Below are positions 352 to 23,141 of a DNA stretch of 32,966 nt, in pieces. Source of the stretch: an uncultured Bacillota bacterium (GTDB lineage Bacteria > Bacillota > UBA994 > UBA5500); assembly GCA_937874815.1 (NCBI GenBank), contig CALNBW010000374.1:1-32966 (forward strand), read 5' to 3'. The position numbers and the translations under genes were made by a program. How positions within the stretch are numbered: position 1 is the first letter of the stretch; every line of letters begins with the position of its first letter. The notes beneath the pieces were generated by a model. That model had not been told where the DNA came from, did not search any database, and was given only the letters and a program-made list of their open reading frames with translations.

Positions 352-1263
352 CTACCAGAATACCCCTTCACCAAAGTCTATATTAACATCACGAATACCA
401 TCATTTATCGCTATTTGGTCATTTGGATCATCAAAATAGCTAGACATGAATTCCCAGTGCGAGGTGCCAGACCATACTTGATAAGCGCCAGCGGCAACTC
501 GGAGAACAAAGCTCGAATACCCTGCTACAGTCCCCATATAGCCATAATGATGATTTCCAATATATTCGCCATCTCTTAACTGATATAGAAAGCTATACTT
601 CGTATTCACACCCAACGGTATCTTTAGGTCCCAGTCCCCTCCCGATCTTACTTTGCTCGCAAAATATGCAGCCCTATACCCTTCCGCTAGAGGAAGCGCG
701 TCCTCTCCTAACTTCCAATCTGTCAAGATCCCCAGATAATCCTGATACAACTGTTCTGCCTCCAGCCGATTCTGCACATAAGTAGCGCGCAACCTAAGGT
801 CTGTACCATCAATAACAGGTGTGCTGTCTAAACCAAGAGTCTCTAGTAGGTAATCGCACATTTCTAAAGTCAGGATGTTTTGCCGGATAAAACTGGCTTC
901 CCTGTTTCTAATCGCCATCAGTTTACACAGGAATAACAAATCCTCATCGCTTGCACCTTCTATCGAACTCAGCAGTTCGCGGCACCATAACTCCTCCGCA
1001 TTTAATGAGAATTCTATATCCATTCCTGGAGTCATTTCTATTTCTGCCAGAATAATGTCCCTAACATCGGAGTATTCGCTATACAGATTTCCAAAATCGC
1101 TACTACCCAAGGTTTCTGCGTATCCGATTGTGCCAAACGACATCAACATGATCATTACCATAACCAAACCAACTATTCTTCTCACAAATATCCTCCCCTT
1201 CTCAGCAAAATGGTGTAAAGTGCCCATATCCGCTAATATGATAGATTTATCCAAATCCATCAT
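352..1263 (-). CDS. secreted or membrane-anchored protein whose C-terminal region resembles a polymorphic-toxin type 44 (Ntox44-like) domain
   Basis: 303-aa ORF. The N-terminus carries a hydrophobic signal or anchor (RRIVGLVMVMIMLMSFGTIGYAE). The C-terminal motifs GGDWDLK, GNHHYGYMGTVAGYS, AAGAYQ and DDPNDQIAINDG resemble what I recall of type-44 polymorphic toxin domains (xWDxK, GNxxYGxxGxxxG, DDPxD). The true start may be an internal Met (MGTLHH...). The domain call is from memory only. Confidence 0.55.
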   Translation of the reverse strand: MMDLDKSIILADMGTLHHFAEKGRIFVRRIVGLVMVMIMLMSFGTIGYAETLGSSDFGNLYSEYSDVRDIILAEIEMTPGMDIEFSLNAEELWCRELLSSIEGASDEDLLFLCKLMAIRNREASFIRQNILTLEMCDYLLETLGLDSTPVIDGTDLRLRATYVQNRLEAEQLYQDYLGILTDWKLGEDALPLAEGYRAAYFASKVRSGGDWDLKIPLGVNTKYSFLYQLRDGEYIGNHHYGYMGTVAGYSSFVLRVAAGAYQVWSGTSHWEFMSSYFDDPNDQIAINDGIRDVNIDFGEGVFW

Positions 1264-1837: not shown

Positions 1838-2212
1838 ATGTGGAACAGTCTGGCGCCGTGTTATTTCCTCGAAACTATCATAACGCTGGTCAATAAACTA
1901 TTCGAAAAAGTCCTCTGGCAAAAAGCTTTAAAAACGGCTGACACTACTAGGCGAATAACACCTGAACCTTTTTCAGGCCCTGTTTCTATACTCCGAAACA
2001 GCGATGGTTATTATGTCGTGCAGAGATCTGCTGAGGGAGTTTATGTGCGCTTCGCCGATCTGACTGGGGAGGAAACCTCGAGGGCAGAAGTGGTATTGTC
2101 CCGGCTCTGGCGGGGTCATCTCAGCAGTACAGCCATGCTCTTAAGGATACCTGGCTGCCGGAATCGAAACAGGGGTTCCGGACGAGGTAACTATGCTATC
2201 AAGCACTGGTGA
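1838..2212 (+). CDS. hypothetical protein; possibly the 5' fragment of a disrupted gene
   Basis: 124-aa ORF with no recognisable motif. Its tail (RIPGCRNRNRGSGRGNYAIKHW) looks non-native. It overlaps the next ORF by 20 nt in a different frame. Confidence 0.3.
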   Translation: MWNSLAPCYFLETIITLVNKLFEKVLWQKALKTADTTRRITPEPFSGPVSILRNSDGYYVVQRSAEGVYVRFADLTGEETSRAEVVLSRLWRGHLSSTAMLLRIPGCRNRNRGSGRGNYAIKHW

Positions 2213-2633
2213 ATGTCTGTTCAGCGTTAACCTGCCAGCTCCTGTTTATGCGACATGTGTTACTAGCGATTGGGGCAACGAGTCCTATTGGTGTCTTTCT
2301 GGGGTTGGCGAGGCAATAGGCCCCATATCAAAAAACGCCCTGTATAAGGTTGATTCGCAAGGCGCAGAACTACGTTTCGATGGGGTAGCATATCAGGGAC
2401 CAACAAGCCTCCTGCCAGTTTCAGGCTATGCCCTTATTTGCGGATACGATGATGGGCAGTTGCACCTGGTGGATGCCAGCGGAAGCATACGATCGGTTAC
2501 GTTTGCGAAGGCCGGTGAATTCCTAAACCCGATGCTTATGTGTGTAAATAACGGCGTTGCCTATATAGCTGTGCGTCGCAACTATGGCCCTGACTACGAC
2601 ACCATATTAGCCGTCGATTTAGGCTTAAAATGA
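2193..2633 (+). CDS. hypothetical protein with beta-strand-rich, propeller-like repeats
   Basis: 146-aa ORF. Segments such as YKVDSQGAELRFDGVAY and GYDDGQLHLVDASGSIRSVTF resemble PQQ/WD-like beta-propeller blades. No clear ribosome-binding site. The frame opens at 2145. Confidence 0.4.
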   Translation: MLSSTGECLFSVNLPAPVYATCVTSDWGNESYWCLSGVGEAIGPISKNALYKVDSQGAELRFDGVAYQGPTSLLPVSGYALICGYDDGQLHLVDASGSIRSVTFAKAGEFLNPMLMCVNNGVAYIAVRRNYGPDYDTILAVDLGLK

Positions 2634-5385: not shown

Positions 5386-6172
5386 GCCTTTCCCTCCTGT
5401 AATGGATTTCTAGCACCTTACTAGCGGTCTCTTCAACTGCTCGATTGGTGACATCGATCACGGGACAGCCTAATTTCTTCATGACAGCTTCTGAATACTC
5501 CAACTCGGCCAGAATACGCCGTAGGCTAGCGTAATCGGCATTAGCTGCCAGCCCCAAGGTTTTTAATCTTTCAGCGCGAATTTCGTTGAGGAAATTGGGA
5601 TTGATAGTGAGGCCAACGATACGGCCTGGCGGCAACTCGAATAATTCTTGCGGCAGCTCCACCTCTGGCACTAAAGGCACATTTGCTGCCTTTACGCCTT
5701 TGTGAGCTAAATACATGCAGACTGGAGTCTTTGAAGTGCGAGAGACACCAATCAGCACTATCTCTGCCCTCAGAATACCGCGGGGATCCTTCCCATCATC
5801 GTACTTGACAGCAAACTCTACTGCCTCCACCTTGCGGAAATACTCTTCATCCAACTTGCGTAACAGCCCAGCTCGCATCTGGGGTGTTTCCTTAGCAACA
5901 TCTGACATAGTCTGCAGCATCGGCCCCATGATATCAATTGTGGGGACATCATATTCTGCTGCCGCACTAACCATTTCCTGCCTGAGCTCGTCAACCACCA
6001 GTGTATAGGCAAAAATACACCGTTCTTTTGAGGCTTCGGCCACAATTTTCCTAATGTACTGCCTGTCATTGACATACGGCATGCGGACAATGTCCATTTC
6101 TGTACCGTAAAATTGACTGGCCGCCGCCCTTACCACAAACTCGGCAGTTTCTCCTAAGGCATCGGAAACCAC
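5375..6172 (-). CDS. pyruvate, phosphate dikinase regulatory protein (bifunctional kinase/pyrophosphorylase, DUF299/YqfL family)
   Basis: VVSDALGETAEFVVRAAASQF at the N-terminus and the P-loop GVSRTSKTP. It overlaps the ppdK start by 11 nt. The track start is a GTG. The frame stays open upstream (..IPTESSRIKVY-VVSD), and an ATT at 6205..6203 lies 8 nt after AAGGAGGGG, so the real start may be up to 33 nt upstream. Confidence 0.92.
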   Translation of the reverse strand: MVSDALGETAEFVVRAAASQFYGTEMDIVRMPYVNDRQYIRKIVAEASKERCIFAYTLVVDELRQEMVSAAAEYDVPTIDIMGPMLQTMSDVAKETPQMRAGLLRKLDEEYFRKVEAVEFAVKYDDGKDPRGILRAEIVLIGVSRTSKTPVCMYLAHKGVKAANVPLVPEVELPQELFELPPGRIVGLTINPNFLNEIRAERLKTLGLAANADYASLRRILAELEYSEAVMKKLGCPVIDVTNRAVEETASKVLEIHYRRERHAK

Positions 6173-6226
6173 ATAAACCTTGATCCGGGAACTCTCAGTG
6201 GGAATAAGCGCCCCCTCCTTTAATGG

Positions 6227-6251
6227 CCCGTAACGCTAAAAGCGTTACGGG
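6227..6251 (-). terminator. 11-bp perfect hairpin downstream of the 4Fe-4S gene and just upstream of the PDRP ribosome-binding site
   Basis: Arms cccgtaacgct (6227..6237) and agcgttacggg (6241..6251) with a 3-nt loop. There is no U-tract on the minus strand, so it may act as a weak terminator or an RNA-processing or stability element. Confidence 0.4.
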
Positions 6252-6321
6252 TTATTGTGCAGCCTATATTAGTGCCTTTGCCTTAATTGTGCCATACTAT
6301 ATCGCAATCATTATATACTAT

Positions 6322-7206
6322 TTACTTATTGATGTCCTGTTTAGAAACAAAAACTAAATGCTGCTGCTTCCTTGTAGAAGCTGGGGCTTTGGCTGCAAAG
6401 GTTAGAGCCCGGGTTGGACAAACATCAACACACTCCAAGCAGCGGACACAAGCGCTGCTGTTTTGCTTTATTTGTGGCTGCAAGGCGGCCTTGCACTGGC
6501 GAGCACAAGCGCCGCAGTCAATACAACGCCCGTGATCCAAACGCAGCCGCCAAATACTCAGCCCGTTGAGTAAACCGTAGAAGGCTCCTAGAGGGCAAAG
6601 CACTCGGCAAAAGGGCCGCCAATAAAAGACAGCGGCAATTAGCACCAGGACTAGCACCAGTAGCTTCCAGCTAAACAACCAGCCGACTAAGGCAGCTAAC
6701 TGGGGGTTCATGCTTACTAAAGGAATACCCCCAGCTAACGTGCCCGCAGGGCATACATATTTGCAGAAGTAGGGCTCGGCCAAGCCCGTTATATCGCGCC
6801 AGAAAAATGGTAGCACTACAGTAAGCCCTAATACCACAAACTTCATTTTTTCTAGGTAGCGCGGCAGCCGGCGGCGGCCCTGCTTGCCGCGATGCACCAG
6901 CTCCTGCACCAGGCCAAAAGGGCAGAGCCAGCCGCAGACAAAACGCCCACCGAGAGAACCAACTGCCAATAAGAACCCTACTAGATACAAAGACAGCGTT
7001 CGGCTAAAGCCAGCCGCCATTGACTGAAACGCCCCCACAGGGCAGGCCCCTAAGGCACCGGGGCATGAATAACAGTTGAGAAATGGCACACAGGCTGCCT
7101 TCAGCTTACCCTGATAGATCCTGCCCTGTAGCCAGCCTGGCAGATAACTATTGCTAAGAATAGCTGCAGCCCATTGACTGAGTTTACGCTTCTTCATCGC
7201 GGACAA
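6322..7206 (-). CDS. polytopic membrane 4Fe-4S binding protein, NapH/MauN/YccM-like
   Basis: Repeated CxxxCPxG motifs lie next to hydrophobic helices: CYSCPGALGACPVG, CGWLCPFG, CKYVCPAG, CRVLCPLG. Two ferredoxin-type clusters follow at the C-terminus: CIDCGACARQC and CVRCLECVDVCP. The likely true start is the ATG at 7197 (MKKRKLSQ...). Confidence 0.85.
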   Translation of the reverse strand: MSAMKKRKLSQWAAAILSNSYLPGWLQGRIYQGKLKAACVPFLNCYSCPGALGACPVGAFQSMAAGFSRTLSLYLVGFLLAVGSLGGRFVCGWLCPFGLVQELVHRGKQGRRRLPRYLEKMKFVVLGLTVVLPFFWRDITGLAEPYFCKYVCPAGTLAGGIPLVSMNPQLAALVGWLFSWKLLVLVLVLIAAVFYWRPFCRVLCPLGAFYGLLNGLSIWRLRLDHGRCIDCGACARQCKAALQPQIKQNSSACVRCLECVDVCPTRALTFAAKAPASTRKQQHLVFVSKQDINK

Positions 7207-7209
7207 TCC

Positions 7210-7347
7210 CTAGCCAATGCCGATGCACTGCAAGCAGATAGTAATGGCCTTCTCCAGCACTTGCAGGGCCTCCTGCCGCAGCAGGCCGAACAGCATTAGC
7301 ACAACACCTAGCCCAAAGAGCAGTTGGCCAGATTTCTCTCGCAACAT
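7210..7347 (-). CDS. 45-aa membrane mini-protein with a C-terminal CxxC motif (CD1871A-family-like)
   Basis: Too short to appear in the track. Hand translation gives MLREKSGQLLFGLGVVLMLFGLLRQEALQVLEKAITICLQCIGIG followed by a TAG stop. It has one TM helix and ends in ICLxCIGIG, as I recall for the PGAP family CD1871A CXXC motif-containing protein. A G-rich ribosome-binding site (aaatggggg) lies upstream. The stop is 3 nt from the next gene. Confidence 0.7.
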   Translation of the reverse strand: MLREKSGQLLFGLGVVLMLFGLLRQEALQVLEKAITICLQCIGIG

Positions 7348-7395
7348 ACATCCCCCATTTCTCTAGTTTCCCCGGACATGGACAAAAACAGGCTT

Positions 7396-7962
7396 CTATT
7401 CTGCTAGCAAGGTAGTTAGTAACGGCATAACTGTCGCTTCATAGGTGTCGCCACCCCAACCCAGCTGAGCAAAGGCAACTCTGCCCTCTTTATCTATGAT
7501 CAAGACAAAAGGAACAGCCGTAACACCATATTGCCCACCTATTTTGTAGTCCTGGTCGTGTATCACTATGGCCTCCAGCTGATTACTATCAAAGAAATGC
7601 TCTACATCGGAGGTTTTGCCAGAGGCAACTACGTAAAGATCAACACCTTGTTCGCGCAGATCTGCTAATTCTGGCTGCAACTGCAGCATCTCTGATACGC
7701 AGGGGCGTCAGCCGGGTGAAAAGAACGAGAGCATACGCACTCGGTCCTGGCTATCAGCGCTAAATGATACCGCCTCGCCACTATATAGATCCTTACCCTC
7801 AAAAGGAATCACCGCAGGACGCTCTTCAACTGGCAGCAGGGTGCCTTCTTGTACCTTGAACGGTTGCTGTCCTTGTTTAGGCGCTGCTGGGCTGCAGCCT
7901 GCCACCATTACGGCCGCTAACAGCAACAGTAGCATCGGTGCCATCTTTCTGGTTATAGTCAA
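7396..7962 (-). CDS. TlpA/ResA-like thioredoxin-fold lipoprotein with predicted selenocysteine (UxxC) at codon 85
   Basis: Track ORFs 7708..7962 and 7396..7689 share one frame and are separated only by TGA (7710..7708) plus 6 sense codons. The joined product reads MTITRKMAPMLLLLLAAVMVAGC (lipobox) ...VRMLSFFSPG-U-RPCVSEMLQLQPEL...GVTAVPFVLIIDKEGRV (cis-Pro loop). It starts at a TTG with a GGGAGGG ribosome-binding site 7 nt upstream. Confidence 0.75.
7674..7687 (-). promoter_or_regulatory. candidate SECIS apical hairpin
   Basis: The RNA GCUGC-AGUU-GCAGC starts 21 nt 3' of the UGA. It forms a 5-bp GC-rich stem with a GU-containing tetraloop. The structure is short and I could not extend it convincingly by eye. 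Confidence 0.3.
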
Positions 7963-8135
7963 TGAACAACCCTCCCTCGAAATTTAAAAGTTATCTTGCT
8001 TATACTTACGATATTACTAGACCCCTTTAGTCACCACAAGTTTAATCAGAATGGCAGCAATAACAGGAATAGGGAGATGCGTGTAGAAGAGATGGATATA
8101 GCCGTTATTACATTCGAACTAAGGAGGTTTGACAA

Positions 8136-9677
8136 TTGATACCCTATCGCAATGAACCGTTAACCAACTTTGCGCTGCCTGAGAACAAGGCGGCCATGCA
8201 GGCAGCCTTGGACCACGTTAGACAGCAGCTTGGCCGCACCTATCCCCTGATAATTGGCGGAGAAGCTATTGCTACCGAGAAAACCCTGCCTTCGGTGAAC
8301 CCGTGCAACCACCAACAAGTTGTTGGCATAGTGGCGCAGGGCAACCGTGAACACGCTGATGCAGCCTTAGCTGCCGCGGAGAACGCTTTCACTAGCTGGA
8401 GCCGGACACCCATGCAAGTTAGGGCCGACTATCTGTTCAAACTGGCTGCAATCATGCGTCGCCAAAAGGCTGAACTTTCTGCTTGGCTGACCATGGAGGT
8501 GGGCAAGAACTGGGTGGAGGCCGATGCAGACGTGGCAGAGGCCATCGACTTCTGCGAGTACTACGGCCGACAAGCTATTGAGTTAAGTCATGGCAGAACA
8601 CCAATCCCATTACCTGGCGAGCGCAATAGTTTCACCTACATACCTCTGGGAGTAGGTCTGGTAATTTCGCCCTGGAACTTCCCCCTAGCAATCCTCTTGG
8701 GCATGACTGCGGCGGCTATTGTTGCTGGTAACACAGTGATTATCAAGCCCGCCAATACGGCCGCTGTAATTGGCGCGAAGGTTTTTGAACTGATCCAGGC
8801 AGCCGATCTGCCGGCAGGCGTTGTTAACTATTTGCCGGGCAGTGGCAGTGACGTTGGTGAATATCTGGTCAATCACCCACGTACTCGCTTCGTTAACTTC
8901 ACGGGTTCCATGGCCGTCGGCCTGCGGATTAACCAACAAGCCGCTATTGCTCAGCCAGGCCAAATTTGGATTAAGCGGGTTATAGCTGAAATGGGCGGTA
9001 AAGACTGCATCATCGTTGATGAAACGGCGGATCTCGAGGCTGCGGCGCGGGGTATAGTCCAGTCAGCCTTCGGTTTCCAAGGGCAGAAATGCTCGGCTTG
9101 TTCGCGAGCGATTATTGTTGACTCGGTCTATGACCAGGTCCTGGAGCGTGTCGTGGAACTGACTAACCAGCTTGCAGTTGGTCCTGCCGCTGATAACTAT
9201 GCGGTAGGGGCAGTCATTGATGCAGCTGCTTTTGCGAAGATTACCTCCTACATTAAGGAGTGTGGAGAGGAAGGCCGACTTGTCGCCGGCGGCGAATACG
9301 ATGATCAACAGGGTTACTTCATCAAGCCCACGGTATATGCTGATGTCAAACCGGATGCTCGCCTGGCACAAGAGGAGATTTTTGGACCGGTGCTAGCTAC
9401 CATTCGGGCTACTGACTTTGAGCACGCCCTGGCGATCGCTAATGATACGATCTACGGCCTCACTGGCTCCCTCTATAGCCAGAAACGCGAACGCATTGAG
9501 CAGGCTAAGCAAGAGTTCCATGTAGGCAATCTATATGTGAACCGCGGCTGCACTGGTGCCCTAGTGGGAGTGCATCCTTTCGGTGGCTTTAACATGAGCG
9601 GCACCGACAGTAAGGCCGGTGGCCCTGATTACGTGCAGTTGTTTATGCAAGCCAAGAGTATCAGCGAGCGGTTGTAA
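8136..9677 (+). CDS. pruA: L-glutamate gamma-semialdehyde (1-pyrroline-5-carboxylate) dehydrogenase
   Basis: 513 aa. The N-terminus YRNEPLTNF...YPLIIGGE and the catalytic region [12 protein letters not shown]...[13 protein letters not shown] closely parallel Bacillus RocA/PruA. TTG start with an AAGGAGG ribosome-binding site. Confidence 0.92.
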
Positions 9678-9704
9678 CAGTTTGATTTTGGATTTTGGGG
9701 CAAA

Positions 9705-9735
9705 GGGGCTGCACGGGCGTGCAGCCCCCTTGTTT
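9705..9735 (+). terminator. rho-independent terminator of pruA
   Basis: Stem ggggctgcac / gtgcagcccc with loop ggc, followed by cttgttt. Confidence 0.8.
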
Positions 9736-9745
9736 GGGCGCAATG

Positions 9746-9924
9746 CCCCTACAGAACATGGCCGGGAACCCGGGCGAGATAGATGTGCTTTCGCGACATC
9801 CCGGGATGTCGCTGCCGCACGCATTAACGTAGCGAATTGCTTACGCAATTCACTCGGTCTCGCCCCTACGGGTGCCCCCAAACCCTTGGGAGAACTGTAG
9901 GGGTCGGATCCTATCCGACCCGGG
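9746..9924. repeat. palindrome-dense structured intergenic element (REP/MITE-like or structured RNA), unclassified
   Basis: The ends are inverted: cccctacag (9747..9755) and ctgtagggg (9895..9903). A nested long-range pair joins ggcgaga (9774..9780) with tctcgcc (9858..9864). Internal perfect hairpins are gccgggaacccggc, the 20-nt palindrome gcgacatcccgggatgtcgc (9792..9811), gaattgc-ttac-gcaattc, and gggtcggat-cct-atccgaccc (9901..9921). CCCGGG occurs three times. Confidence 0.4.
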
Positions 9925-9935
9925 TGCAGCAGCCC

Positions 9936-11150
9936 TTACCGCTGTCTGCTTAGCCCGAGGTCGAGCATGAGTTGCTCTAAAAGGGCGCTATGGTCATCAC
10001 GGCAGATCAGGTGATGGTTACCCAGCGGGTGCCTGAGGAAATAGTTGGCATCTTCATCAAGGGCGACGCGCAATTGGGTGCGGCAAAGGTTGGTGCGCTC
10101 TAGATTTTCCAAAATCTCGCCACCGGAGACAAAGTAGCGGGCGCAATCGTTGCTCAGCTTGAAGACGGTGCAACGACCGGGTCGAATTTTCCCCCGTACA
10201 CCAATGCCTAAATCGGACTCGAAGTGAGTATGCAAACTGTATGATTCTGTCATGGCCAGGGGCACAGTGCAGTGGGCGACTAACAGTTGGTTGTTGGCGA
10301 CGTCTATTTCCGATGGATTAGCCATGAACACCGGCTCATCTGTCAGTGCTTGCATGATCACCATGGAAAGCAGTGCCGGCACGTCACCTTCACATCCAGC
10401 TGGGATCCCCGCATCATTCAATAGAGACAAACCGATGCACCCCGTATTCCGATAGGGCCCGAGCAAATCGAAGCAGCGTACTGTCAGTGCGCCCAGCTCG
10501 TATCTGTCCACGAGCGACTTAAGTGCCAAGTAAATGCGTATAGCACCTTCGGTGACGCTTGGGTCCATAGTTTTCGCCAAGGAATCAATGAGCTCACCGG
10601 GCACCTCAGTAACTTCATCAATGGCCTGCTTTAGCTCGTTAATGTCGATATCAATTAGGGATAGGCCCAGACGCTTATGAGCCAGCTCGGGGTCTACATG
10701 GCTAGCGATCAACCAATCGGATGGCTGACCAATAACACCAACGCGCAGACCGGCTAGCTTCTGCCTCGCCCTCTCCAGCCGAGCAATCTCTTTCAGCCTG
10801 TGGGCGATGCTAGCAGGAGAACCATGCAGAATTTCAGCCCGTTTGCCTTGTTGCTGCAAGAAAGTAAGAATCTCTAGCGACGCAGCCAGCGAGTTGTTCT
10901 GGCCGGTTGTCAGTAGCAAGTAAGGCTCGCGCAACTCTTGATAAAGCTGTTTGAAAATTCCTTCTGTACCACCCGATTGGATGAAAATGAGGGGAAGGGC
11001 AGATTGCGGCAACTGCTCCAACTTAGTCCCCTGAAGTGGCTGATCCAAGAGTTTTCCCAGCTCCTGCAAGAAACTGGCGGTCTCGGCATCATGGCTGCGA
11101 TTTGCGTGCAGATCGGCAATGACCTCATAAAGGGCAAATTTCATCGTCAT
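9936..11150 (-). CDS. L-fucose/L-arabinose isomerase family-like protein, function unknown
   Basis: 404 aa. The motif GCEGDVPALLSMVIMQAL resembles the metal-binding and catalytic CE(G/A)D segment of the FucI/AraA superfamily. The region VAHCTVP...GNHHLICRDDH near the C-terminus also fits. It lies 63 nt downstream of proC with no intervening hairpin. Confidence 0.55.
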   Translation of the reverse strand: MTMKFALYEVIADLHANRSHDAETASFLQELGKLLDQPLQGTKLEQLPQSALPLIFIQSGGTEGIFKQLYQELREPYLLLTTGQNNSLAASLEILTFLQQQGKRAEILHGSPASIAHRLKEIARLERARQKLAGLRVGVIGQPSDWLIASHVDPELAHKRLGLSLIDIDINELKQAIDEVTEVPGELIDSLAKTMDPSVTEGAIRIYLALKSLVDRYELGALTVRCFDLLGPYRNTGCIGLSLLNDAGIPAGCEGDVPALLSMVIMQALTDEPVFMANPSEIDVANNQLLVAHCTVPLAMTESYSLHTHFESDLGIGVRGKIRPGRCTVFKLSNDCARYFVSGGEILENLERTNLCRTQLRVALDEDANYFLRHPLGNHHLICRDDHSALLEQLMLDLGLSRQR

Positions 11151-11213
11151 TCACTCCATTCCGTAATACCCATAACAGTTCTTCTAGCTTCATCCTCCAG
11201 ATACCTGCCCCGA

Positions 11214-12050
11214 TTAATTAGTTCCAAAAGTAGCTGCTCGCGCTAGGTCGCGAGAACGTTCTGTAGCACGCAAAATGGCATCCTGAACTGCCTCAGTGAA
11301 ATGATGCTCCGTCAGCGCTTGTAGGCCCGCTATGGTGGTACCTCCAGGGCTACTCACTTGCTGCCTTAGTTCAGCTGGGGTATGGTCGCTTACCTGCAAC
11401 ATGCGCGCAGCTCCAAGTAGCGTTTGTTCCGTTAAAGCACGGGCAGTGCTACCATCAAGGCCGGCGGCCATACCACCTGCTAACATGGCCTCGGCTAACA
11501 GATAGACATAGGCCGGGCCACTACCAGACAGCCCCGTGACCGCATCCATCATCGGCTCAGCCACTTGTTGCACAATGCCCATAGCCGCAAAAAGGGTTTC
11601 AGCTAGGGCCAGATGCTCTGGTTTTGCATGTTGGCCCGCGCAGATAGCGGTTGCTGCCAGGCCAACGGATGCCGCTGTATTAGGCATGGCACGCACTACA
11701 GGTGTCTGCTCCGGCAGATACTGTCCGATTTGTTGCGTGGGCATGCCCGCTAGTAACGAAATTACCAATTGATCCTCATGCAAATACGCTCGGTAAGTGG
11801 CCAATGCGGAGGCCAGATCCTTAGGCTTGAAAGCTAATATAACAATAGTCGCCTGCGCTAGGCGCTCTGCTGTAGCTTGACATTCTGTAGCAATACCGTA
11901 TTTCTCGGCTATCTCTAAGCAGCGCCCTGGCCTGATATCTGTAGCCGTGATCTGCTCGCGAGGCAAGACTTGCTGCTCTAGCAGACCTTTGATCATGGCT
12001 TCGGCCATAGCACCGGCACCAAGGAAATAAACTAGATTGTCACTGCTCAT
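11214..12050 (-). CDS. proC: pyrroline-5-carboxylate reductase
   Basis: Rossmann motif FLGAGAMAEAMIKGL at the N-terminus and SPGGTTIAGL near the C-terminus. 278 aa. Confidence 0.93.
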   Translation of the reverse strand: MSSDNLVYFLGAGAMAEAMIKGLLEQQVLPREQITATDIRPGRCLEIAEKYGIATECQATAERLAQATIVILAFKPKDLASALATYRAYLHEDQLVISLLAGMPTQQIGQYLPEQTPVVRAMPNTAASVGLAATAICAGQHAKPEHLALAETLFAAMGIVQQVAEPMMDAVTGLSGSGPAYVYLLAEAMLAGGMAAGLDGSTARALTEQTLLGAARMLQVSDHTPAELRQQVSSPGGTTIAGLQALTEHHFTEAVQDAILRATERSRDLARAATFGTN

Positions 12051-12078: not shown

Positions 12079-13326
12079 CTACCTGGTCTGCCCAGCGCCG
12101 CTAATAAGATATTTATACGTCGTTAACCCCAATACTCCAGTCGGCCCCCGGGCATGCAGTTTCTGCGTGCTAATGCCAATCTCCGCCCCTAAGCCCAGGG
12201 CATACCCATCACTGAAACGAGTAGAGGCATTATGATAGAGACAAGCTGCATCTACGCTGGCAAAAAAACGGCTAACACTGTTCTCATCCGTGGAAACGAT
12301 TGCCTCCGAGTGGCGAGTGCCATATTGATTAATGTGCCGAATGGCCTCATCCACACTAGCCACTTGCTTGATTGCTACTGTCAAACCCAGATACTCGTGC
12401 GCCCAATCATCATCAACGGCCAAAACACTTGCAGGAGCTTGCTGCTGTAACTGGGGGCAGAGTCTAAGTTCAACACCGGCTGCCTGTAGCTCAGTGGCTA
12501 GGCGAAGGAAATGCTGCTTTGCCCACGCCTGATGCAGCAGAATAGTCTCCACCGCATTGCAGACCCCCGGACGGCTACACTTGCTATTCAAAGCTAGTGC
12601 CACTGCCATGTCTACTGGCGCTGAAGCATCAATATATAAATGGCAATTACCGACCCCGGTTTCCAGAACGGGCACAGTAGCCGACTCGAGCACAGTGCGA
12701 ATCAGATCCGCGCCGCCCCGGGGTACAATCATGTCAATTAAGCCTCGCGCTTGAGCCATCTCCAAGACAGATTGCCGACTAGTAGCTGGCACTATTTGCA
12801 CTAAGTCACTAGGTAAGCCCAGGGCGTTGAGCGTTTCCGCAATGATGCTGACTAGATAGGCATTAGTTTGAGCCGCCATGCGACTGCCGCGTAGCAGAAC
12901 AGCATTACCGCTCTTCAAACAGAGTGCTGCCGCGTCAACGGTGACATTAGGGCGGGCTTCGTAGATAATCCCAACCACACCTAGGGGCACGCGCACTTGG
13001 CGCACCCACAGCCCATTAGGTTGCTGCCAGCTAGCAATTGTTTCGCCTAGAATGTCTTGAGCCTCCGCTATCTGCCGCACACCCTCAATCATGCTAGCGA
13101 TGCGTTCGGCGTCGAGAGTCAATCTATCCAGCAACGCATCGGCTAAGCCAAGCTGCGCCTGCTCTGCAACCTCAACAGCATTAACGGAGATAATGTCTGC
13201 CTGCCTCTTGCTTAGTGCAGCTGCTAAATCAAGCAATATCTGCCGCCTTGCTTCTGCTGTACTCGCCTGCAAATAGGGAGCGGCTGCCTGGGCTCGCTGG
13301 GCTTGCTCCTTCACTGTTAGGTTCAT
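12079..13326 (-). CDS. proA: glutamate-5-semialdehyde dehydrogenase (gamma-glutamyl phosphate reductase)
   Basis: 415 aa with the typical ProA segments IYEARPNVTVDAA, VLLRGS, GVCNAVETILLH, HNASTRFSDG and TYKY. Confidence 0.95.
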   Translation of the reverse strand: MNLTVKEQAQRAQAAAPYLQASTAEARRQILLDLAAALSKRQADIISVNAVEVAEQAQLGLADALLDRLTLDAERIASMIEGVRQIAEAQDILGETIASWQQPNGLWVRQVRVPLGVVGIIYEARPNVTVDAAALCLKSGNAVLLRGSRMAAQTNAYLVSIIAETLNALGLPSDLVQIVPATSRQSVLEMAQARGLIDMIVPRGGADLIRTVLESATVPVLETGVGNCHLYIDASAPVDMAVALALNSKCSRPGVCNAVETILLHQAWAKQHFLRLATELQAAGVELRLCPQLQQQAPASVLAVDDDWAHEYLGLTVAIKQVASVDEAIRHINQYGTRHSEAIVSTDENSVSRFFASVDAACLYHNASTRFSDGYALGLGAEIGISTQKLHARGPTGVLGLTTYKYLISGAGQTR

Positions 13327-13338
13327 ATCTATCCCCTC

Positions 13339-14160
13339 TCAATTAGCTGGCCTGGGCTGCACCCCAAAATCGGGGTTAGAGAAAAACAGCTCAATCTGCT
13401 CGGTCGTACCAAAATAGGTACCATTGCCTCGGCCAGAGAATATGGCCAGAAACTCGCTCGTAGTTTGGGCCTTGCCAATAAAGCAGGCCCCTCCCCTACG
13501 TAACACCTTAGCTACAGCCTGCAATTTACTGGACATACCGCCGGTGCCTAGCGCACTACTGCCGCTGGCCATTGCCAAGAGCTGGTCATCCCAGGCAGTA
13601 ACCCGCTTAATACGTCGGGCGGTAACACACTGGTTGGGGTTCTGATCATACAGACCGTCTGTATCGGTAATGATCACCAATACGGGGGCAGCGATAGCCT
13701 CTGCTACTAAGGCAGAAAGCTGGTCATTATCACCGAAAGTGAGCTCTTCCACGGCGACAGTGTCATTCTCATTGACGATTGGGATAATCGGCTGTCGCAA
13801 CAGGTAATTGAGCATGTTCACAGCGTTTTGCGCCCTCTCCCCGTCCTTTAAGTCAGCCGCGGTCAGTAATAATTGCGCTACACTCAGCCCATAGGGTGCC
13901 AAGAACTGATGATAGGCCTGTATCAACTGGCTTTGCCCTACGGCGGCGGCAGCCTGTCTTTCTATCAGGGCCCTTGGCCTCTCGGCAAAGCCAGCCAGCC
14001 GATAGCCAGCGGCTACCGCTCCTGAAGTGACAAGAACTACTTGCTGACCATCAAGCCGTAGCTGGGCGAGGCCCGAAACATACGGCAGCATCCTCTCGGT
14101 TGCCAAGGAGCCATCGGTGTGGGTCAGCGAGCTACTACCGATTTTCACTACGTATCTCAT
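13339..14160 (-). CDS. proB: glutamate 5-kinase (short form without PUA domain)
   Basis: RYVVKIGSSSLT at the N-terminus, NENDTVAV, and an amino-acid kinase fold. The track start is 14166. The second ATG at 14160 has better spacing (7 nt) from the AAAGGTG ribosome-binding site. Confidence 0.92.
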   Translation of the reverse strand: MRYVVKIGSSSLTHTDGSLATERMLPYVSGLAQLRLDGQQVVLVTSGAVAAGYRLAGFAERPRALIERQAAAAVGQSQLIQAYHQFLAPYGLSVAQLLLTAADLKDGERAQNAVNMLNYLLRQPIIPIVNENDTVAVEELTFGDNDQLSALVAEAIAAPVLVIITDTDGLYDQNPNQCVTARRIKRVTAWDDQLLAMASGSSALGTGGMSSKLQAVAKVLRRGGACFIGKAQTTSEFLAIFSGRGNGTYFGTTEQIELFFSNPDFGVQPRPAN

Positions 14161-14225
14161 CCACATACACCTTTCTCTTTTTTGGAGCAGCCATCCAGCG
14201 TATTGCCTTCAGCCACTGCCAAATG

Positions 14226-14500
14226 CAAAAAAGCCCTTTCGCCCCTACTCATGAAGGGCGAAAGAGCTTTGCTTCCGCGGTACCACCTTAATTGGGCATG
14301 TTCATGCCCCACTCTAACCCGTTAACGGAGGCCAACCGACCTAAGTTTGGTGCCTAGGTTGCTCTTAGGGTAGGTTCAACTGCACATGGGGAGGCACTTT
14401 ACAGCCTATGAGTGCCTCTCTCTGGCTCCCAGAGGTACTAGTCTACTAGTCCTAGTCTTAGCATTTAACAGGCGTGCCGAACGGCACCCTTGCTTATAAT
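14226..14500 (-). promoter_or_regulatory. T-box riboswitch leader, proline-specific (CCU specifier)
   Basis: The reverse strand carries the conserved T-box sequence AAGGUGGUACCGCGG (14289..14275), overlapping an antiterminator/terminator switch. An AGAGAG GA-motif is present in stem I. The specifier-loop context GAA-CCU-A places the codon at 14374..14372. The leader sits directly upstream of proB, as in the Bacillus proBA T-box. Confidence 0.88.
14227..14264 (-). terminator. T-box attenuator terminator
   Basis: 9-bp stem ctttcgccc (14236..14244) / gggcgaaag (14256..14264), followed on the minus strand by GGCUUUUUUGC. Confidence 0.85.
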
Positions 14501-15569: not shown

Positions 15570-16985
15570 TCAAGACTTCTGGTATATACGACTCCCCACA
15601 CTTACCATTTCGCATTGCCCATTGTAAGCATGAAACTGTAACACTAGCCCGGGTGGCAGTACCTCGCCTGATCCTGAAGATATAAATACATTGCCACCAC
15701 AGAAGACTATCGGTTCGCTGCCCTTTTCTCCCTGGCAAATCAGTTTACCGCTATCATTGGTGCTGATGATGATCTGTTCCTGCCTACTTTCTCTGGAACT
15801 ATAGACTCCGGTATAGATCAAAGGCTCTTCGAGTTTATCAGCCCAAACCTCTTCAGCCCACATGTGGCTTTGTTCCAAAGGCAAACCGAGCCGCATGTTG
15901 AAAGCAGCGTTTGTCAGCGGCGAGCAATCGATTCCACTAAGGTTTGTCAACAGTGTAACTGCATATGCGCCATCTCTGATGAAACCGCCCCTAGAAGAAA
16001 CTCCAGTTAACCCGCCAGAGTGTTCGCAAATGGCAACGTCCTCAAATAAGCGTTTACTCAGGCCATAGCAGTAGGTACCTTTCTTGGTTTCCGCAAAGCT
16101 GCGGCCAATAACACGCTCGATACAGCTTTCAGGGAACACGCGGCTGCCCTCATGAATGCCTCTACCAGCCAACGCCATATAATACTTGTTCATATCCAAG
16201 GCTGTTGACTTGATCCAACCGCAGCCTCTATAAGGAGGGGCGTTATCCCAGTTATCTGAACAACGTAGAACTCCGTCTCCATCTTTTATGAAAAGACTAG
16301 TAATATTCCCTTTGGCCATCACCGTGTTCAGGGCAAAGCTGCTGCGATCCATGCCGAGAGGCTGAAAAATGCGTCGGTCTACATAGCTTTCCAAGGTTTC
16401 TCCAGCTGCTTTGTCAATTATGCTAGAGAGCAGGGCGTAACCATCGTTAAGATAACTCATATATTTTCCAGGAGGCCCAAGGACCCTAAGCTCGCCATCT
16501 TGAGCAATGAAATCAATGATATCGTTTACATGCTCTACCCTAGTCTTCGATTCAGCCCTATATTGCTCCAAAATCTGCTTGTTCCACGGCTCAGATGCAG
16601 TGTTCCAAGCTAGTGACCAAGATAAGGTCGGCAAAGGCGGAATCCCTGTTGTGTGATTCGCCAAGTGGTGTACCTGAACGGTTTCCTGAGGAGTCCCTGG
16701 AATACGGAAGCTGGGGAGATACTTGGTCACGGGGTCATCAAAACTAAGCTTCCCCTCATGTTCTAGTAATGCTGCTGCCATGCAGGTAATCGACTTACTC
16801 ATGGAGGCTACGACGAAAACTGTTTCAGGCGTTACCGGTTTGCGCCCATCAGCATCGCGGTGACCAAATCCCCTACTATATAGAACTCCTGTATCATCGC
16901 TAACGCAAATTGCTGCGCCTGGTACAGCGTGCTTCTGAAGAATCTCAGTCAAGAATGATTCTAACTTATCCCAGTCGTATCTCAT
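15570..16985 (-). CDS. cytoplasmic serine hydrolase of the beta-lactamase / D-aminopeptidase (DAP-like) family with an extra C-terminal beta domain
   Basis: SxxK motif ASMSKS and Y-x-N (SYLNDG). No signal peptide. About 110 extra C-terminal residues. The start is moved to the ATG at 16985 (MRYDWDKLE) because GGAGGA lies 6 nt upstream; the track start at 17015 is a TTG. Confidence 0.82.
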   Translation of the reverse strand: MRYDWDKLESFLTEILQKHAVPGAAICVSDDTGVLYSRGFGHRDADGRKPVTPETVFVVASMSKSITCMAAALLEHEGKLSFDDPVTKYLPSFRIPGTPQETVQVHHLANHTTGIPPLPTLSWSLAWNTASEPWNKQILEQYRAESKTRVEHVNDIIDFIAQDGELRVLGPPGKYMSYLNDGYALLSSIIDKAAGETLESYVDRRIFQPLGMDRSSFALNTVMAKGNITSLFIKDGDGVLRCSDNWDNAPPYRGCGWIKSTALDMNKYYMALAGRGIHEGSRVFPESCIERVIGRSFAETKKGTYCYGLSKRLFEDVAICEHSGGLTGVSSRGGFIRDGAYAVTLLTNLSGIDCSPLTNAAFNMRLGLPLEQSHMWAEEVWADKLEEPLIYTGVYSSRESRQEQIIISTNDSGKLICQGEKGSEPIVFCGGNVFISSGSGEVLPPGLVLQFHAYNGQCEMVSVGSRIYQKS

Positions 16986-17063
16986 TACGGTTCCTCCAAT
17001 TTCTGTGCCATCCAATGGCCTACAATCCGATACCTAGCAGTTTGACGCGTTACAAAAGCTAGG

Positions 17064-17861
17064 TTATAACACCCATTTTAGAGTTCGCAGTACCTCATAA
17101 TAGCAAGCGCTTTCAAAGGTTACAATGTTAGAGGTTTCTCTTTTTACTCCGGGAAAATATGACACCTTTTCAGCGTAAGTATGCTCTTTGAAGCAGATTT
17201 CTACGGCAAAATGATCGGGTAGCTTGATCTTGGCTGCGTCGAGATCCTGACGCATAGCGTTTTGGGCGGCTAAGCGGATATTCTTGACCACTAAGTCGGG
17301 GGAATAATTCTTAGTGAGGCTTCCTAGGCCGCTCTTAGTGGGTACAGTCAACAGACTAGGGTGCAATTCACTTTCATCCCTACACAGCATTTCGTCGCCG
17401 GAAAGCAAGACCGTAGGTACGCCTTCAAGCGCACAAGCCCAACTATACATCATGAATTCGGAAGCATAACGGCCGTTAATCTTGACCCATACTGGTCGTC
17501 CCGTCAAAGTATGGGAGAGAGGGTTTCCCGCCCTGCCTGCTGCGGAATGGTAGCCAATGAACATAGCACAATCAAAGCTACTGTCGACTCCCTCTACCAT
17601 AAGATAAGGGTGACCAGACCAGTTACGTAGCAGGACCACGTTTTCTGGCATGAGCGCTACATCAATATTCTGACCTGACCCATGAGCATCTTTGATGTAA
17701 ACCTCGTTGGCACCACCAGTAAATGCCCCTTCGCAGGCAGCAAGTACTTCCCGTGTCATTTGCTTAGCGTGTGGAGCAGCCAAAGGATCTTGGGTATGCG
17801 TCTCCCTCCAATCAGTCGTAGTGGCGATGCCTTCGATATCCGCGCTTATAAATACTTTCAT
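17064..17861 (-). CDS. dppA: M55 family metallopeptidase (D-aminopeptidase, DppA of Bacillus nomenclature)
   Basis: MKVFISADIEGI at the N-terminus and KDAHGSG closely follow Bacillus subtilis DppA (MKLYMSVDMEGISG...NDSH). The start is set at the ATG at 17861, preceded by GAGAGGATGG. Confidence 0.88.
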   Translation of the reverse strand: MKVFISADIEGIATTTDWRETHTQDPLAAPHAKQMTREVLAACEGAFTGGANEVYIKDAHGSGQNIDVALMPENVVLLRNWSGHPYLMVEGVDSSFDCAMFIGYHSAAGRAGNPLSHTLTGRPVWVKINGRYASEFMMYSWACALEGVPTVLLSGDEMLCRDESELHPSLLTVPTKSGLGSLTKNYSPDLVVKNIRLAAQNAMRQDLDAAKIKLPDHFAVEICFKEHTYAEKVSYFPGVKRETSNIVTFESACYYEVLRTLKWVL

Positions 17862-18017
17862 CAATACCATCCTCTCACTGCAATCTTTTATCCACATTCT
17901 AGCTACAAGCTTCTAGTTGCTTCGCAACCATCGTTTCATCACCCGCAACGCTAAAGCGTAACTAGCAATTGGCCCAAATAGATAATCCGTTAACGGCTGT
18001 ATAGATGGGCATCTGGC

Positions 18018-19139
18018 CTATTTGGAGGAGCATAGAACGTTCATGATAGCAGACGCCAAGGCATCTACAGAACCATTGTTATTGGCCAACACGATAACAC
18101 CAGCACCTGCTTGAGGGCAGATGATGTTGCTTGAGCAATAGCCACCCACTAAGCCGTTATGGTCGTAGATCTTGCCGTATGGCCTAACTCCTGCATGCCA
18201 TCCAAGACCAATAGTTCGCTGCCCAGAGAGATGAGATTGCTGAGCTAAGGCCATGGCCTCTGCTAGCCGCAAATCAACTGTGAAACCACCCACATTAGCT
18301 GCCAAGTAGCGAATCATATCTCTAGCGGTACTCTTGATTCCACCAGCCGCCTGCATGGCATCAAAATCCCACTCCTTGGCCGATGTGCCACTGGCCAAGT
18401 GGGGTTTTGCTTTTCGGGCTTGTAGAGCTTCGTCAGGGAAAACAGTCGTTGAGGACATACCCAACTTGTCGCAAATTAGCTCCCTCAGCATTGTGTCGTA
18501 GGGCTTGCCGTACGCGTCCGACAAACACTCACCTAAGACACCCATGCCCAGATTGGAGTACTCATACACCGTACCGGGTGTTCTACGCAATATGTGGGCC
18601 CTCATGAAGTTGTTCATATCCTGTCTACTGAAATCAGAAAACGGGTTAAGGGGGTTGGTAGTTGCAGGGTCTCGCGGTAAGCCGGAAGTATGGGTGGCTA
18701 AATGCTTCAATGTCATCTTCACGCCGTCCAACTCCCCTGATTTACTCTCATCAAAGAAGCTATTTACTGTGGTATCTAGTGAAACTAGACCCTGTAGCGA
18801 CAGATCAGCTAACAACGTGCCAGTAAACGTCTTTGTCAACGATGCAATTTCGAAAAGCGTATTCTCGTTAATGGGCTTCCCTTTTTTTTCGGTGCTTCCA
18901 TAATTGAAATAGGCTACACCTCCGTCTTTTACCACCGCAACTGCCATGCCCGTGAAACCCTTGGCATCGAAGTAAGCCGCACATTCCTTGCCAATCTTAT
19001 CAAGAAGCTCGCCATCCTTAATTGGGGGTAGCTCACCAGCCCTTGCATTCACTGCCGACCGCAAGGCAGGCAATGCAAGAACCCCAACAAGAACTACCAT
19101 TGCAATGCATAGCCAATAATTCTTACGGGTTAGCTGCAT
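18018..19139 (-). CDS. exported class-C beta-lactamase-fold serine hydrolase
   Basis: Signal peptide (WLCIAMVVLVGVLALPALRSAVNA), SxxK motif ASLTKT, and YSN (YEYSNLG). 373 aa. Confidence 0.85.
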   Translation of the reverse strand: MQLTRKNYWLCIAMVVLVGVLALPALRSAVNARAGELPPIKDGELLDKIGKECAAYFDAKGFTGMAVAVVKDGGVAYFNYGSTEKKGKPINENTLFEIASLTKTFTGTLLADLSLQGLVSLDTTVNSFFDESKSGELDGVKMTLKHLATHTSGLPRDPATTNPLNPFSDFSRQDMNNFMRAHILRRTPGTVYEYSNLGMGVLGECLSDAYGKPYDTMLRELICDKLGMSSTTVFPDEALQARKAKPHLASGTSAKEWDFDAMQAAGGIKSTARDMIRYLAANVGGFTVDLRLAEAMALAQQSHLSGQRTIGLGWHAGVRPYGKIYDHNGLVGGYCSSNIICPQAGAGVIVLANNNGSVDALASAIMNVLCSSK

Positions 19140-19198
19140 CTACTAATCGCACCTCCTAGCTTCCTCGCATACTTAGGCAGTGGGATGTTGAACTAACT

Positions 19199-20176
19199 CT
19201 ATACCATAAGGCAGGATACCCAGTGGCCCGGTTCAATCTCCCGTAGTTGCGGCTCCATTATGGAACACTGGCCCACGCAAACTGGACACCGGGTATGAAA
19301 TGTACAGCCTGCTGGCGGATTAATGGGACTAGGCATGTCACCTTCTAGACGTACCCTCTCCCCTTTTTCACCACTAATCTTCGGAACAGAAGATAGCAGC
19401 GCCCTCGTGTATGGGTGTAACGGGTTGCGGTAAATGTCTTTCTTGCCGCCAAGCTCTACAATCTTGCCCAAGTACATTACAGCTACCCTATCCGAAATAT
19501 GGTGCACAACCGCTAAGTCGTGGGAGATGAAAACGAGCGATAACTCGTATCTCTCTTGGATGCGACGCAAAAGGTTAACTATCTGCGACTGGATGGATAC
19601 GTCAAGAGCCGAAACTGGCTCGTCGCAGACAATTAGCTTAGGGCTTAGGGACAGCGCCCGAGCAATACCGATCCGCTGGCGCTGGCCGCCAGAGAACTCA
19701 TGTGGGTAGCGGTTAAGATAAGCCCGCTCCAGTCCACACTCGTCCATAAGTTCCAAGACACGCAACAAGACTTCTTTCTCCGACTGAAAAACCTGCTGCG
19801 TCCTAATGGGCTCGGCAATAATATCGCCCACAGTCATGCGTGGATCTAGCGAAGCGTACGGATCTTGAAAAATGATCTGGATATCCCGCCTAATGCTGCG
19901 CATCTGTTTATGGCTATAATCCGTGATATCGTTGCCTTCAAAGATAATTCGGCCAGTTGTTGGTTCAAGTAGCTTCATTATGGTTAAGCCCAAAGTGGAT
20001 TTCCCGCACCCCGATTCGCCAACAATACCTAAGGTCTCACCCGCATTGACTGACAGGCTGACACCATTAACTGCCTTTACCGTTCTTCGTTTTTCAAAGT
20101 ATGATTTCCTAGGCACAGGGAAATAGGTCTTCAGGTCCCTAATTTCCAACAGTGGGCCATTTGCTCTAGAGCTCAT
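19199..20176 (-). CDS. oligopeptide/dipeptide ABC transporter ATP-binding protein (OppF/DppF type)
   Basis: Walker A GESGCGKST, signature FSGGQRQR, Walker B LIVCDEP, and a C-terminal Opp-type extension with Cys residues. Confidence 0.93.
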   Translation of the reverse strand: MSSRANGPLLEIRDLKTYFPVPRKSYFEKRRTVKAVNGVSLSVNAGETLGIVGESGCGKSTLGLTIMKLLEPTTGRIIFEGNDITDYSHKQMRSIRRDIQIIFQDPYASLDPRMTVGDIIAEPIRTQQVFQSEKEVLLRVLELMDECGLERAYLNRYPHEFSGGQRQRIGIARALSLSPKLIVCDEPVSALDVSIQSQIVNLLRRIQERYELSLVFISHDLAVVHHISDRVAVMYLGKIVELGGKKDIYRNPLHPYTRALLSSVPKISGEKGERVRLEGDMPSPINPPAGCTFHTRCPVCVGQCSIMEPQLREIEPGHWVSCLMV

Positions 20177-21173: not shown

Positions 21174-21177
21174 CGCC

Positions 21178-23027: not shown

Positions 23028-23063
23028 TCGCCTCCCAGCAGATGTTCTTCACCCAAAAGGAAG

Positions 23064-23101: not shown

Positions 23102-23141
23102 TTCGCTGTTGCTGGAGCTTGGCCAGTCTGGCTTATACTAA

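Follow-up and report, generated by a model that had tools for sequence, protein, structure and literature searches.

How is an exported thioredoxin-fold protein supplied with reducing power where neither CcdA nor DsbD is encoded beside it? Extracytoplasmic thioredoxin-like proteins repair and mature surface proteins, and to our knowledge the DsbD/CcdA thiol relay, fed by cytoplasmic thioredoxin, is the only established route by which they are powered. The question is raised by a contig of an uncultured Bacillota bacterium (CALNBW010000374.1, assembly GCA_937874815.1), the 32,966 nucleotides (nt) of which are hereafter called the window. According to the list of open reading frames (ORFs) and read-through translation, three co-directional genes spanning 7962..6322 on its minus strand encode a selenocysteine (Sec)-containing TlpA-like lipoprotein, a mini-protein of 45 amino acids (aa) with a CXXC motif and a NapH-like membrane protein. 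All three were found where an earlier note on this DNA, hereafter the original prediction, had placed them; that note had read the trio as a redox relay across the membrane without CcdA or DsbD. Judging from the sequences, we hold with moderate confidence that the mini-protein and the NapH-like protein (hereafter the pair) form an iron-sulfur (Fe-S) conduit that reduces the exported thioredoxin via outward-facing cysteines, in analogy to CcdA/DsbD, and that the three genes form one functional unit. Co-occurrence of the genes, alternation of Sec and Cys forms, a CcdA-free module and six extra cysteines speak for the relay, while outward electron flow, the route through the CXXC motif and the topology are what we infer.

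For the conservation analysis one genome per species was scanned, which gave at least 599 relatives of the locus, and the best 80 were fetched for counts. At least 5,943 NapH-like homologues were found at E <= 0.001 among 8,000 candidates scored. A small ORF of the CD1871A type, the family of the mini-protein, lies directly upstream of the NapH-like gene in all 80 loci, and in 72 of these its end falls within ~50 nt of the NapH-like tblastn match, with frequent overlap. The pair is adjoined by a same-strand TlpA-like gene with a signal peptide in 69 of the 80 loci, more often upstream than downstream and twice in two copies; a 70th locus, L071, has its TlpA-like gene 4.3 kb from the pair. ORF clustering identified the TlpA-like proteins as the sole other family that recurs in most loci within 4.5 kb, the next being a histidine kinase (14 loci). 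Carriers occur among the Lachnospiraceae (Dorea, Blautia, Roseburia), Oscillospiraceae, Christensenellaceae, Phascolarctobacterium, Treponema, Synergistaceae and Eggerthellaceae. The trio arrangement is far beyond chance, and the conservation of pair and trio effectively rules out that the three genes function independently. Co-occurrence in other genomes, which the original prediction had proposed as a check, was thus found in several phyla.

Neither DsbD nor CcdA had a Pfam match in the scan, which covered 25 of the larger ORFs of the window. For the lipoprotein a single full-length homologue was found in the database (locus L087, 31% identity). It stands in an operon in which a thioredoxin-reductase-like gene is followed by a DsbD_TM gene and a TlpA gene, and a CcdA query from this locus was used for a tblastn search of the entire window together with the 87 loci fetched (915 kb). 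Neither the window nor any of the adjacent trios gave a significant match. Besides the source locus itself, the sole significant match was in L071, directly upstream of the TlpA-like gene that stands apart from the pair; in this Christensenellaceae locus (5852..11697) the pair is followed by a second Fer4_5 membrane protein (6893..7735) and, 3.6 kb downstream, by CcdA-TlpA (10417..11697). Across the 87 loci and the window a TlpA-like gene has either CcdA or the pair as its neighbour, never both, and this pattern is the strongest indirect argument for the pair filling the role of CcdA. The earlier claim that neither CcdA nor DsbD is present therefore stands for the 33-kb window, by Pfam scans as well as tblastn, and is not made for the genome: because the L071 genome carries both systems, 'without CcdA/DsbD' is limited to the locus.

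The lipoprotein gene contains an in-frame TGA, and public gene calls split it into products of 78 aa and 97 aa. Its start is TTG 7962, preceded by GAGGGAGGG, whereas gene callers prefer ATG 7944; the N-terminus MTITRKMAPMLLLLLAAVMVAGC is an export and lipoprotein signal with the lipobox VAGC. Read-through of the TGA at 7710..7708 gives FFSPG-U-RPC, and hence the active site U-R-P-C in one continuous protein, the cis-Pro region of which reads TAVPF. Both halves fall in a single thioredoxin-fold match (Pfam AhpC-TSA 49.6 bits, cutoff 26; Redoxin 41.6 bits, cutoff 26.6), the NCBIfam matches are weak (ResA over residues 70-165, MauD and StoA), and in the PDB the closest sequences are those of ResA and thioredoxin-like proteins. 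A word-indexed search with the U-to-C version of the protein returned one database match. With the fold match, a W/F-C-x-P-C-type site in which Sec takes the place of the first Cys, and the export signal, the protein has the features of the TlpA/ResA-like group. It is not ResA proper (NF002854 49 bits versus a cutoff of 170), and scans of the window found no ResB, ResC or CcdA genes. A peroxiredoxin was considered, AhpC-TSA being the top Pfam match, and rejected on the context of the site, which is F-x-x-x-x-U-x-P-C as in TlpA/ResA and not the peroxiredoxin P-x-x-x-T-x-x-C. The lipoprotein may have a peroxidase-like end use.

For the comparison of Sec and Cys forms, the 80 related loci were subjected to an iterated profile search in which TGA was kept open. 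The column of the UGA is occupied by Cys in 65 homologues, mostly as W/F-C-x-P-C (WCSPC, FCGPC and similar), and by UGA in seven other loci and the two closest relatives, L084 and L085, which with the window makes 10 UGA forms in total. Every Sec form has a hairpin that starts 19-20 nt past the UGA, at +23..+36 in the lipoprotein gene. The hairpins belong to two classes, GCUGC-AGUU-GCAGC and UCCUGC-GUU-GCAGGA (UGCCUG-AGUUG-CAGGCA in L008), which lie in registers one base apart and retain pairing despite changed bases, i.e. by compensatory changes; G-U-U is present in the loop of nine of the ten. When tested at a fixed offset the hairpin was found in 9/10 Sec forms versus 1/65 Cys forms, and in the tenth Sec form the stem is retained, with a loop enlarged to 7 nt. 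Since Rfam gave no match to a Sec insertion sequence (SECIS) at gathering or permissive thresholds, and single-sequence folding of the region was no better than that of shuffles, the case for the SECIS rests on the comparison. A tRNA scan of the window found no tRNA. An in-frame UGA aligned to Cys, followed by a SECIS-like hairpin with G/U in its loop, is what characterises bacterial selenoproteins, and the reading of this UGA as Sec, and of the lipoprotein as a SECIS-bearing Sec protein, is well supported. The original prediction of a Sec-TlpA lipoprotein was hence correct, and the alternation of Sec and Cys forms across genomes that it suggested looking for does occur at the first active-site position.

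All 74 TlpA-like partner fragments from the 80 loci have a hydrophobic N-terminus and at least 56 a lipobox. Sixteen partners are long (320-425 aa, e.g. L007 4567..5841, L064 6660..7871 and L004 4700..5776) and have a region of ~200 aa between lipobox and thioredoxin domain, which in the ten that were scanned gave no Pfam match and no Msr fusion. The active sites of the partners are of the reductive C-x-P-C type or U-x-x-C, and this bears on the direction of electron flow. The lipoprotein might instead oxidise exported cysteines like DsbA, with the pair disposing of the electrons in the manner of DsbB or VKOR; thioredoxin-fold lipoproteins such as BdbD and MdbA can act as oxidants. NapH is described as taking electrons from quinol in Nap systems, so the family is not tied to one direction (PMC3475470). 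However, the sites resemble those of TlpA, ResA and CcmG and not the CPHC of DsbA, Sec as the attacking residue is typical for a reductase, and canonical CcdA, a supplier of reductant, holds the equivalent operon position in L087 and L071. Low-potential ferredoxin-type clusters would moreover be poor sinks for thiol electrons, and altogether we regard such a reversed flow as very improbable.

In two loci, L050 and L058, a class I pyridine-nucleotide disulfide oxidoreductase gene directly precedes the mini-protein gene, which hints at a candidate NAD(P)H-linked cytoplasmic donor in some lineages. The partner lipoprotein of L058, a Gemmiger metagenome-assembled genome (1490..5416), is a rhodanese-TlpA fusion, with the oxidoreductase encoded between fusion and mini-protein; this combination hints at sulfane-sulfur chemistry with an NAD(P)H-linked donor. 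A gene for a 135-aa MsrB (SelR) on the minus strand of L084 (8661..9068) divergently adjoins the Sec-TlpA gene. This locus comes from a near relative, whose NapH-like protein is 66% identical, and the single instance may link the module to methionine sulfoxide repair.

The mini-protein is indeed a 45-aa protein ending in ICLQCIGIG, as originally described, with a basic N-terminus and one hydrophobic helix. It matches NCBIfam NF040920, 'CD1871A family CXXC motif-containing protein', over residues 9-45 (51.6 bits versus a cutoff of 32). The C-terminus of the homologues, K-A-x-x-I-C-x-E-C-x-G-x-G, is near-invariant and always forms the extreme end of the protein: all 80 loci end in C-x-x-C-x-G-x-G. 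A word-indexed search with the 45-aa protein gave six matches and an exhaustive profile search 841 representative clusters, all of small proteins (29-112 aa among those listed, nearly all with C-terminal matches). Since the N-terminal flank of the helix has a charge of +3 and the C-terminal flank is neutral by charge count, the N-terminus is predicted to lie inside and the CXXC motif outside. We found no function attached to the family name NF040920. The Clostridioides difficile CD1871 locus from which the name derives lies in a region listed as a conjugative transposon, beside an ABC transporter permease (PMC12772354, PMC11326576). Genes for an FtsX-type permease and a histidine kinase also occur near the module in some loci (e.g. 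L008).

The NapH-like protein contains two Fer4_5 repeats, a Fer4 domain and two ferredoxin-type CxxCxxCxxxC motifs according to Pfam, which agrees with the NapH-like architecture with two 4Fe-4S motifs of the original prediction. The four CxxxCPxG motifs that it had counted must be revised to three canonical ones (C88, C145 and C197 in the 291-aa numbering) and the variant CYSCPGALGACPVG. NapH is a protein of four transmembrane helices (4-TM) with two Cx3CP motifs and two [4Fe-4S] clusters (PMC3475470), and the two CX3CP and two 4Fe-4S motifs are colinear with the 4-TM core of E. coli NapH. The protein matches the 'NapH/MauN family' model of NCBIfam and stays far below the cutoffs both for NapH itself (TIGR02163 72.5 versus 213.05 bits; PRK09477 65.9 versus 234 bits) and for CcoG (21.9 versus 316.7 bits). 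NapG and NapA partners were found neither in the window nor as recurrent neighbours in the 80 loci, and neither the NapH-like protein nor the window genes scanned gave a match to FMN_bind or ApbE.

In 71 sequences 18 cysteines of the NapH-like protein are conserved to 100%. Alignment with E. coli NapH (MG1655) shows that the CX3CP motifs C88/C92 and C197/C201 and the eight ferredoxin cysteines are common to both, while six invariant cysteines are specific to the family. Four of them, C36/C42/C45/C52, sit in an insertion in the loop between TM0 and TM1 (loop A), where E. coli NapH has an 11-residue deletion at NCYSCPGALGAC; C145/C149 sit in an insertion in the TM2-TM3 loop (loop C), where it lacks ~24 residues. 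Hydropathy gives three clear helices (~70-90, 121-138 and 175-197) and a weakly hydrophobic helix 0. Loop B has a net charge of +4.5 and loop C is neutral, as expected of an outside loop. In the absence of a Tat signal a ferredoxin domain must lie in the cytoplasm, and this together with the strongly positive loop B fixes the orientation of TM1-TM3 and puts loops A and C outside, so that the six extra cysteines are predicted to face outward. Among the NapH-like matches two long ones, P0044 and P0091, were checked and have no thioredoxin fusion. In P0044 (418 aa) the TM1-CX3CP-TM2-loop C unit is duplicated internally, through natural repeat expansion or as an artefact of assembly, and P0091 has a low-complexity tail.

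The observed gene content, Sec signals, conservation of pair and trio, export signals of the partners, CcdA-free module and cysteine insertions can be joined into a mechanism, in which the direction of flow, the donor, the topology, the role of each cysteine and the substrates are inferred. In the cytoplasm, electrons would be taken up by the 2x[4Fe-4S] ferredoxin domain at the C-terminus of the NapH-like protein. Their donor is expected to be not thioredoxin but reduced ferredoxin or a flavoenzyme, given the 4Fe-4S and CX3CP motifs of the membrane component, and in quinone-poor anaerobes these would be the most likely choice. From there electrons would cross the membrane-embedded CX3CP region to the added cysteines in the two outward loops, and the eight outward cysteines (six from the loop insertions, two from the CXXC motif of the mini-protein) would reduce the U/CxxC of the lipoprotein. 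The lipoprotein would then reduce disulfides or other oxidised groups on surface proteins. A precedent for such a scheme is the description of NapH-like proteins as modular conduits that link electron pools of the cytosol or membrane with extracytosolic acceptors (PMC8238504).

Several points weigh against this reading. The charges of loop B, loop C and the mini-protein fit outward cysteines, but loop A, with four of the six extra cysteines, has a net charge of +3.6 and helix 0 is only weakly hydrophobic, so the topology itself remains a prediction. For loop A, its weak point, an outward position is argued from how well this fits the remaining segments and from homology to the 4-TM model of NapH. 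The AlphaFold2 (AF2) model of the NapH-like protein is moderate, with a predicted local distance difference test (pLDDT) value of 76, and has its lowest confidence in loop A, which a missing partner or cofactor might explain. Sequence and fold searches of the PDB match the ferredoxin domain alone, and no solved structure covers the membrane core. At the level of gene content, the pair stands without an adjacent TlpA-like gene in at least five loci whose flanks are complete, which means that the core function of the pair may be broader, and L071 shows that a module-bearing genome can also hold CcdA.

These last two points would also fit a different division of labour, in which the TlpA-like protein is not the client of the pair but a maturation or maintenance factor that keeps the redox state of its outward cysteines, for metal or cofactor loading or for activity. 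The output of the pair would then lie elsewhere, e.g. in an extracellular substrate, and the reductant of TlpA would come from a CcdA encoded elsewhere. The invariance of the pair (80/80) set beside the lower frequency of adjacent TlpA-like genes (69/80) and the loci that have none agree with this, as does the L071 genome with CcdA and TlpA alongside the pair. Characterised TlpA/ResA proteins do act on Cys-containing assembly intermediates: ResA serves apocytochrome c, and TlpA serves Sco and CoxB. On the other hand, no other conserved candidate for an output protein was found near the pair, TlpA-like genes adjacent to the pair never come with CcdA whereas the non-adjacent one does, and Sec would suggest a high-turnover catalyst over an occasional assembly factor. 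We therefore consider maintenance by the lipoprotein unlikely and prefer reduction of the lipoprotein by the pair.

A further point against reduction of the lipoprotein comes from CcoG, a member of the same Fer4_5 superfamily and a cupric reductase, for which two Cu-binding sites are reported besides two [4Fe-4S] clusters (PMC7558416). By analogy the NapH-like protein could reduce or handle a metal such as copper, bound by its Cys motifs and the CXXC of the mini-protein, with the TlpA-like protein serving metal trafficking or keeping metal-binding thiols reduced. CXXC and CX3CP are plausible soft-metal ligands, and the Cu sites of CcoG are presumably its CX3CP motifs. The match to the CcoG model mentioned above is, however, weak in relation to its cutoff, the genes that recur near the module in the 80 loci include none for a copper ATPase, chaperone or cuproenzyme, and the hosts are mostly strict anaerobes, in which heme-copper oxidases are not expected. 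A role in metal handling thus appears quite improbable.

Among known systems, the module shares with CcdA/DsbD and their acceptors TlpA, ResA, CcmG and Etrx an acceptor with a thioredoxin fold and C-x-P-C that is anchored in the membrane or is a lipoprotein, a membrane protein encoded beside this acceptor (as seen in L087 and L071) and the presumed purpose of delivering cytoplasmic reducing power to the outside. Unlike these, its membrane component is unrelated to DsbD_TM and has two [4Fe-4S] motifs, CX3CP and a 45-aa CXXC subunit. Ferredoxin:thioredoxin reductase and heterodisulfide reductase exemplify how one-electron Fe-S carriers reduce a two-electron disulfide beside a cluster, and offer an analogy for the way in which the module might work; these are soluble or cytoplasm-facing and no sequence relationship to the module was found, whereas the disulfide of the module is expected outside. 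The sole other cluster known to us that holds both families is the mau cluster, with the TlpA-like MauD and the ferredoxin and NapH-like proteins MauM/MauN. The weak MauD match of the lipoprotein and the 'NapH/MauN family' match of the membrane protein recall it, but the matches of the module lie far below cutoffs and methylamine dehydrogenase genes are lacking.

With NapH (NapGH), NosR, PceC and RdhC the membrane protein has in common the Fer4_5 repeats, two CX3CP motifs and the C-terminal 2x[4Fe-4S]. The module differs from these systems in having no NapG, NapA, NosZ or RdhA neighbours and no FMN-binding domain, and in that its partner is a thioredoxin fold rather than a flavinylated or Fe-S periplasmic protein; over NapH it adds the six invariant loop cysteines and an obligate CXXC mini-subunit. 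CcoG, FixG and YccM belong to the same Fer4_5 superfamily and combine a polytopic core with two [4Fe-4S] clusters, the biochemistry of CcoG being defined (PMC7558416), but the module has no Ig-like domain, no ccoHIS or copper genes nearby and anaerobic hosts. A parallel to the small subunit is found in extracytosolic electron-transfer clusters of DsbD, DUF3570, a thioredoxin-like protein and DUF4266, which likewise unite a conduit through the membrane with a thioredoxin-like partner and a very small protein whose conserved C-terminal CXC was proposed to redox-cycle (PMC8238504); there the conduit is DsbD, the small protein is secreted and ApbE flavinylation is involved.

A literature search found no paper describing the module or its wiring, and the most relevant survey of NapH-like proteins treats flavinylated systems only (PMC8238504). 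The remark of the original prediction that the wiring is uncharacterised agrees with this search, although the component superfamilies are already known and the mini-protein family has already been named by NCBI curators in NCBIfam. From its sequences the module is a candidate for an uncharacterised analogue of CcdA/DsbD, in which a NapH-type conduit would have had its output side rebuilt with cysteines and a CXXC subunit for a thioredoxin-fold protein. More tentatively, and with less than even confidence, the pair might represent a second, mechanistically distinct class of transmembrane disulfide reductase, driven by Fe-S clusters and fed by ferredoxin or a flavoenzyme, which recharges exported thioredoxin-fold proteins via a relay of outward-facing cysteines and replaces or parallels CcdA/DsbD in a large share of Clostridia.

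Coordinates of the module and associated signals are collected in Table 1.

Table 1. Features of the redox module in the window.
Feature	Position	Strand	Remarks
Gene 1, TlpA/ResA-like thioredoxin-fold lipoprotein	7396..7962	minus	188 codons including Sec
Gene 2, 45-aa CD1871A-family single-pass membrane protein	7210..7347	minus	ORF call and NF040920
Gene 3, NapH-like polytopic Fe-S protein	6322..7197	minus	291 aa from ATG 7197
In-frame UGA (Sec), first (nucleophilic) position of CxxC-type active site	7708..7710	minus	
SECIS-like hairpin GCUGC-AGUU-GCAGC	7674..7687	minus	comparative evidence
Strong hairpin, 11-bp stem and 3-nt loop, 70 nt past gene 3	6227..6251	minus	

Of the gaps first given for the three genes, the 48 nt between genes 1 and 2 are correct; the 3 nt between genes 2 and 3 apply only if the NapH-like gene starts at TTG 7206 (294 aa), and become 12 nt with the ATG. 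The ATG is the more likely start, as an identical database protein uses it and the N-termini of homologues fit. A terminator scan of the minus strand found no terminator-like site between the three genes. The hairpin past gene 3, which had been taken for the terminator, is real (z = -2.45 on folding) but lacks a U-tract and was not among the intrinsic terminators called; it may mark the end of the operon or stabilise the RNA. The downstream gene could be served by a promoter-like site at 6338..6310. The mini-protein and NapH-like genes are in the same frame (7197..7212, minus strand, TAG GGA TTG TCC GCG ATG), a single TAG and four codons parting the mini-protein from the NapH-like frame. No natural fusion of the two was seen in the 80 loci.

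Elsewhere in the window, a gene resembling P5C dehydrogenase (8136..9677, plus strand) is oriented divergently to the redox module. A T-box leader (107.8 bits; 14251..14468, minus strand) lies upstream of three minus-strand genes (13339..14166, 12079..13326 and 11214..12050) for an amino-acid kinase, an aldehyde dehydrogenase and a P5C reductase; this operon resembles proB-proA-proC and suggests tRNA-sensed control of proline synthesis. The minus-strand region 15570..24746 encodes two beta-lactamase-family proteins, a Peptidase_M55 D-aminopeptidase and a five-gene ABC transporter of the Opp/Dpp type, which suggests uptake and cleavage of peptides containing D-amino acids. A 303-aa ORF (352..1263, minus) has a C-terminal Ntox44 bacterial toxin domain (E = 2e-11) and, with two nearby small ORFs that gave no Pfam matches (1838..2212 and 2193..2633, plus), may form a polymorphic toxin/immunity locus. 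No Pfam match at E <= 1e-5 was obtained for a 404-aa ORF (9936..11150, minus), which is conserved in the syntenic locus L085 (6282..7487), or for a 209-aa ORF (25051..25680, plus).

If the proposed mechanism is true, surface thiol chemistry would be coupled straight to the low-potential ferredoxin pool of anaerobes, and the enigmatic CX3CP motifs of the NapH superfamily would gain a defined role. CcdA/DsbD might then be replaced or paralleled in the dominant gut Lachnospiraceae and Oscillospiraceae and, since major gut commensal families carry the module, it could bear on tolerance to oxygen and oxidants at the cell surface. The locus also adds a Sec-containing lipoprotein that gene callers currently split in two, and the module would offer a tractable entry to the unsolved membrane mechanism of the NapH family.

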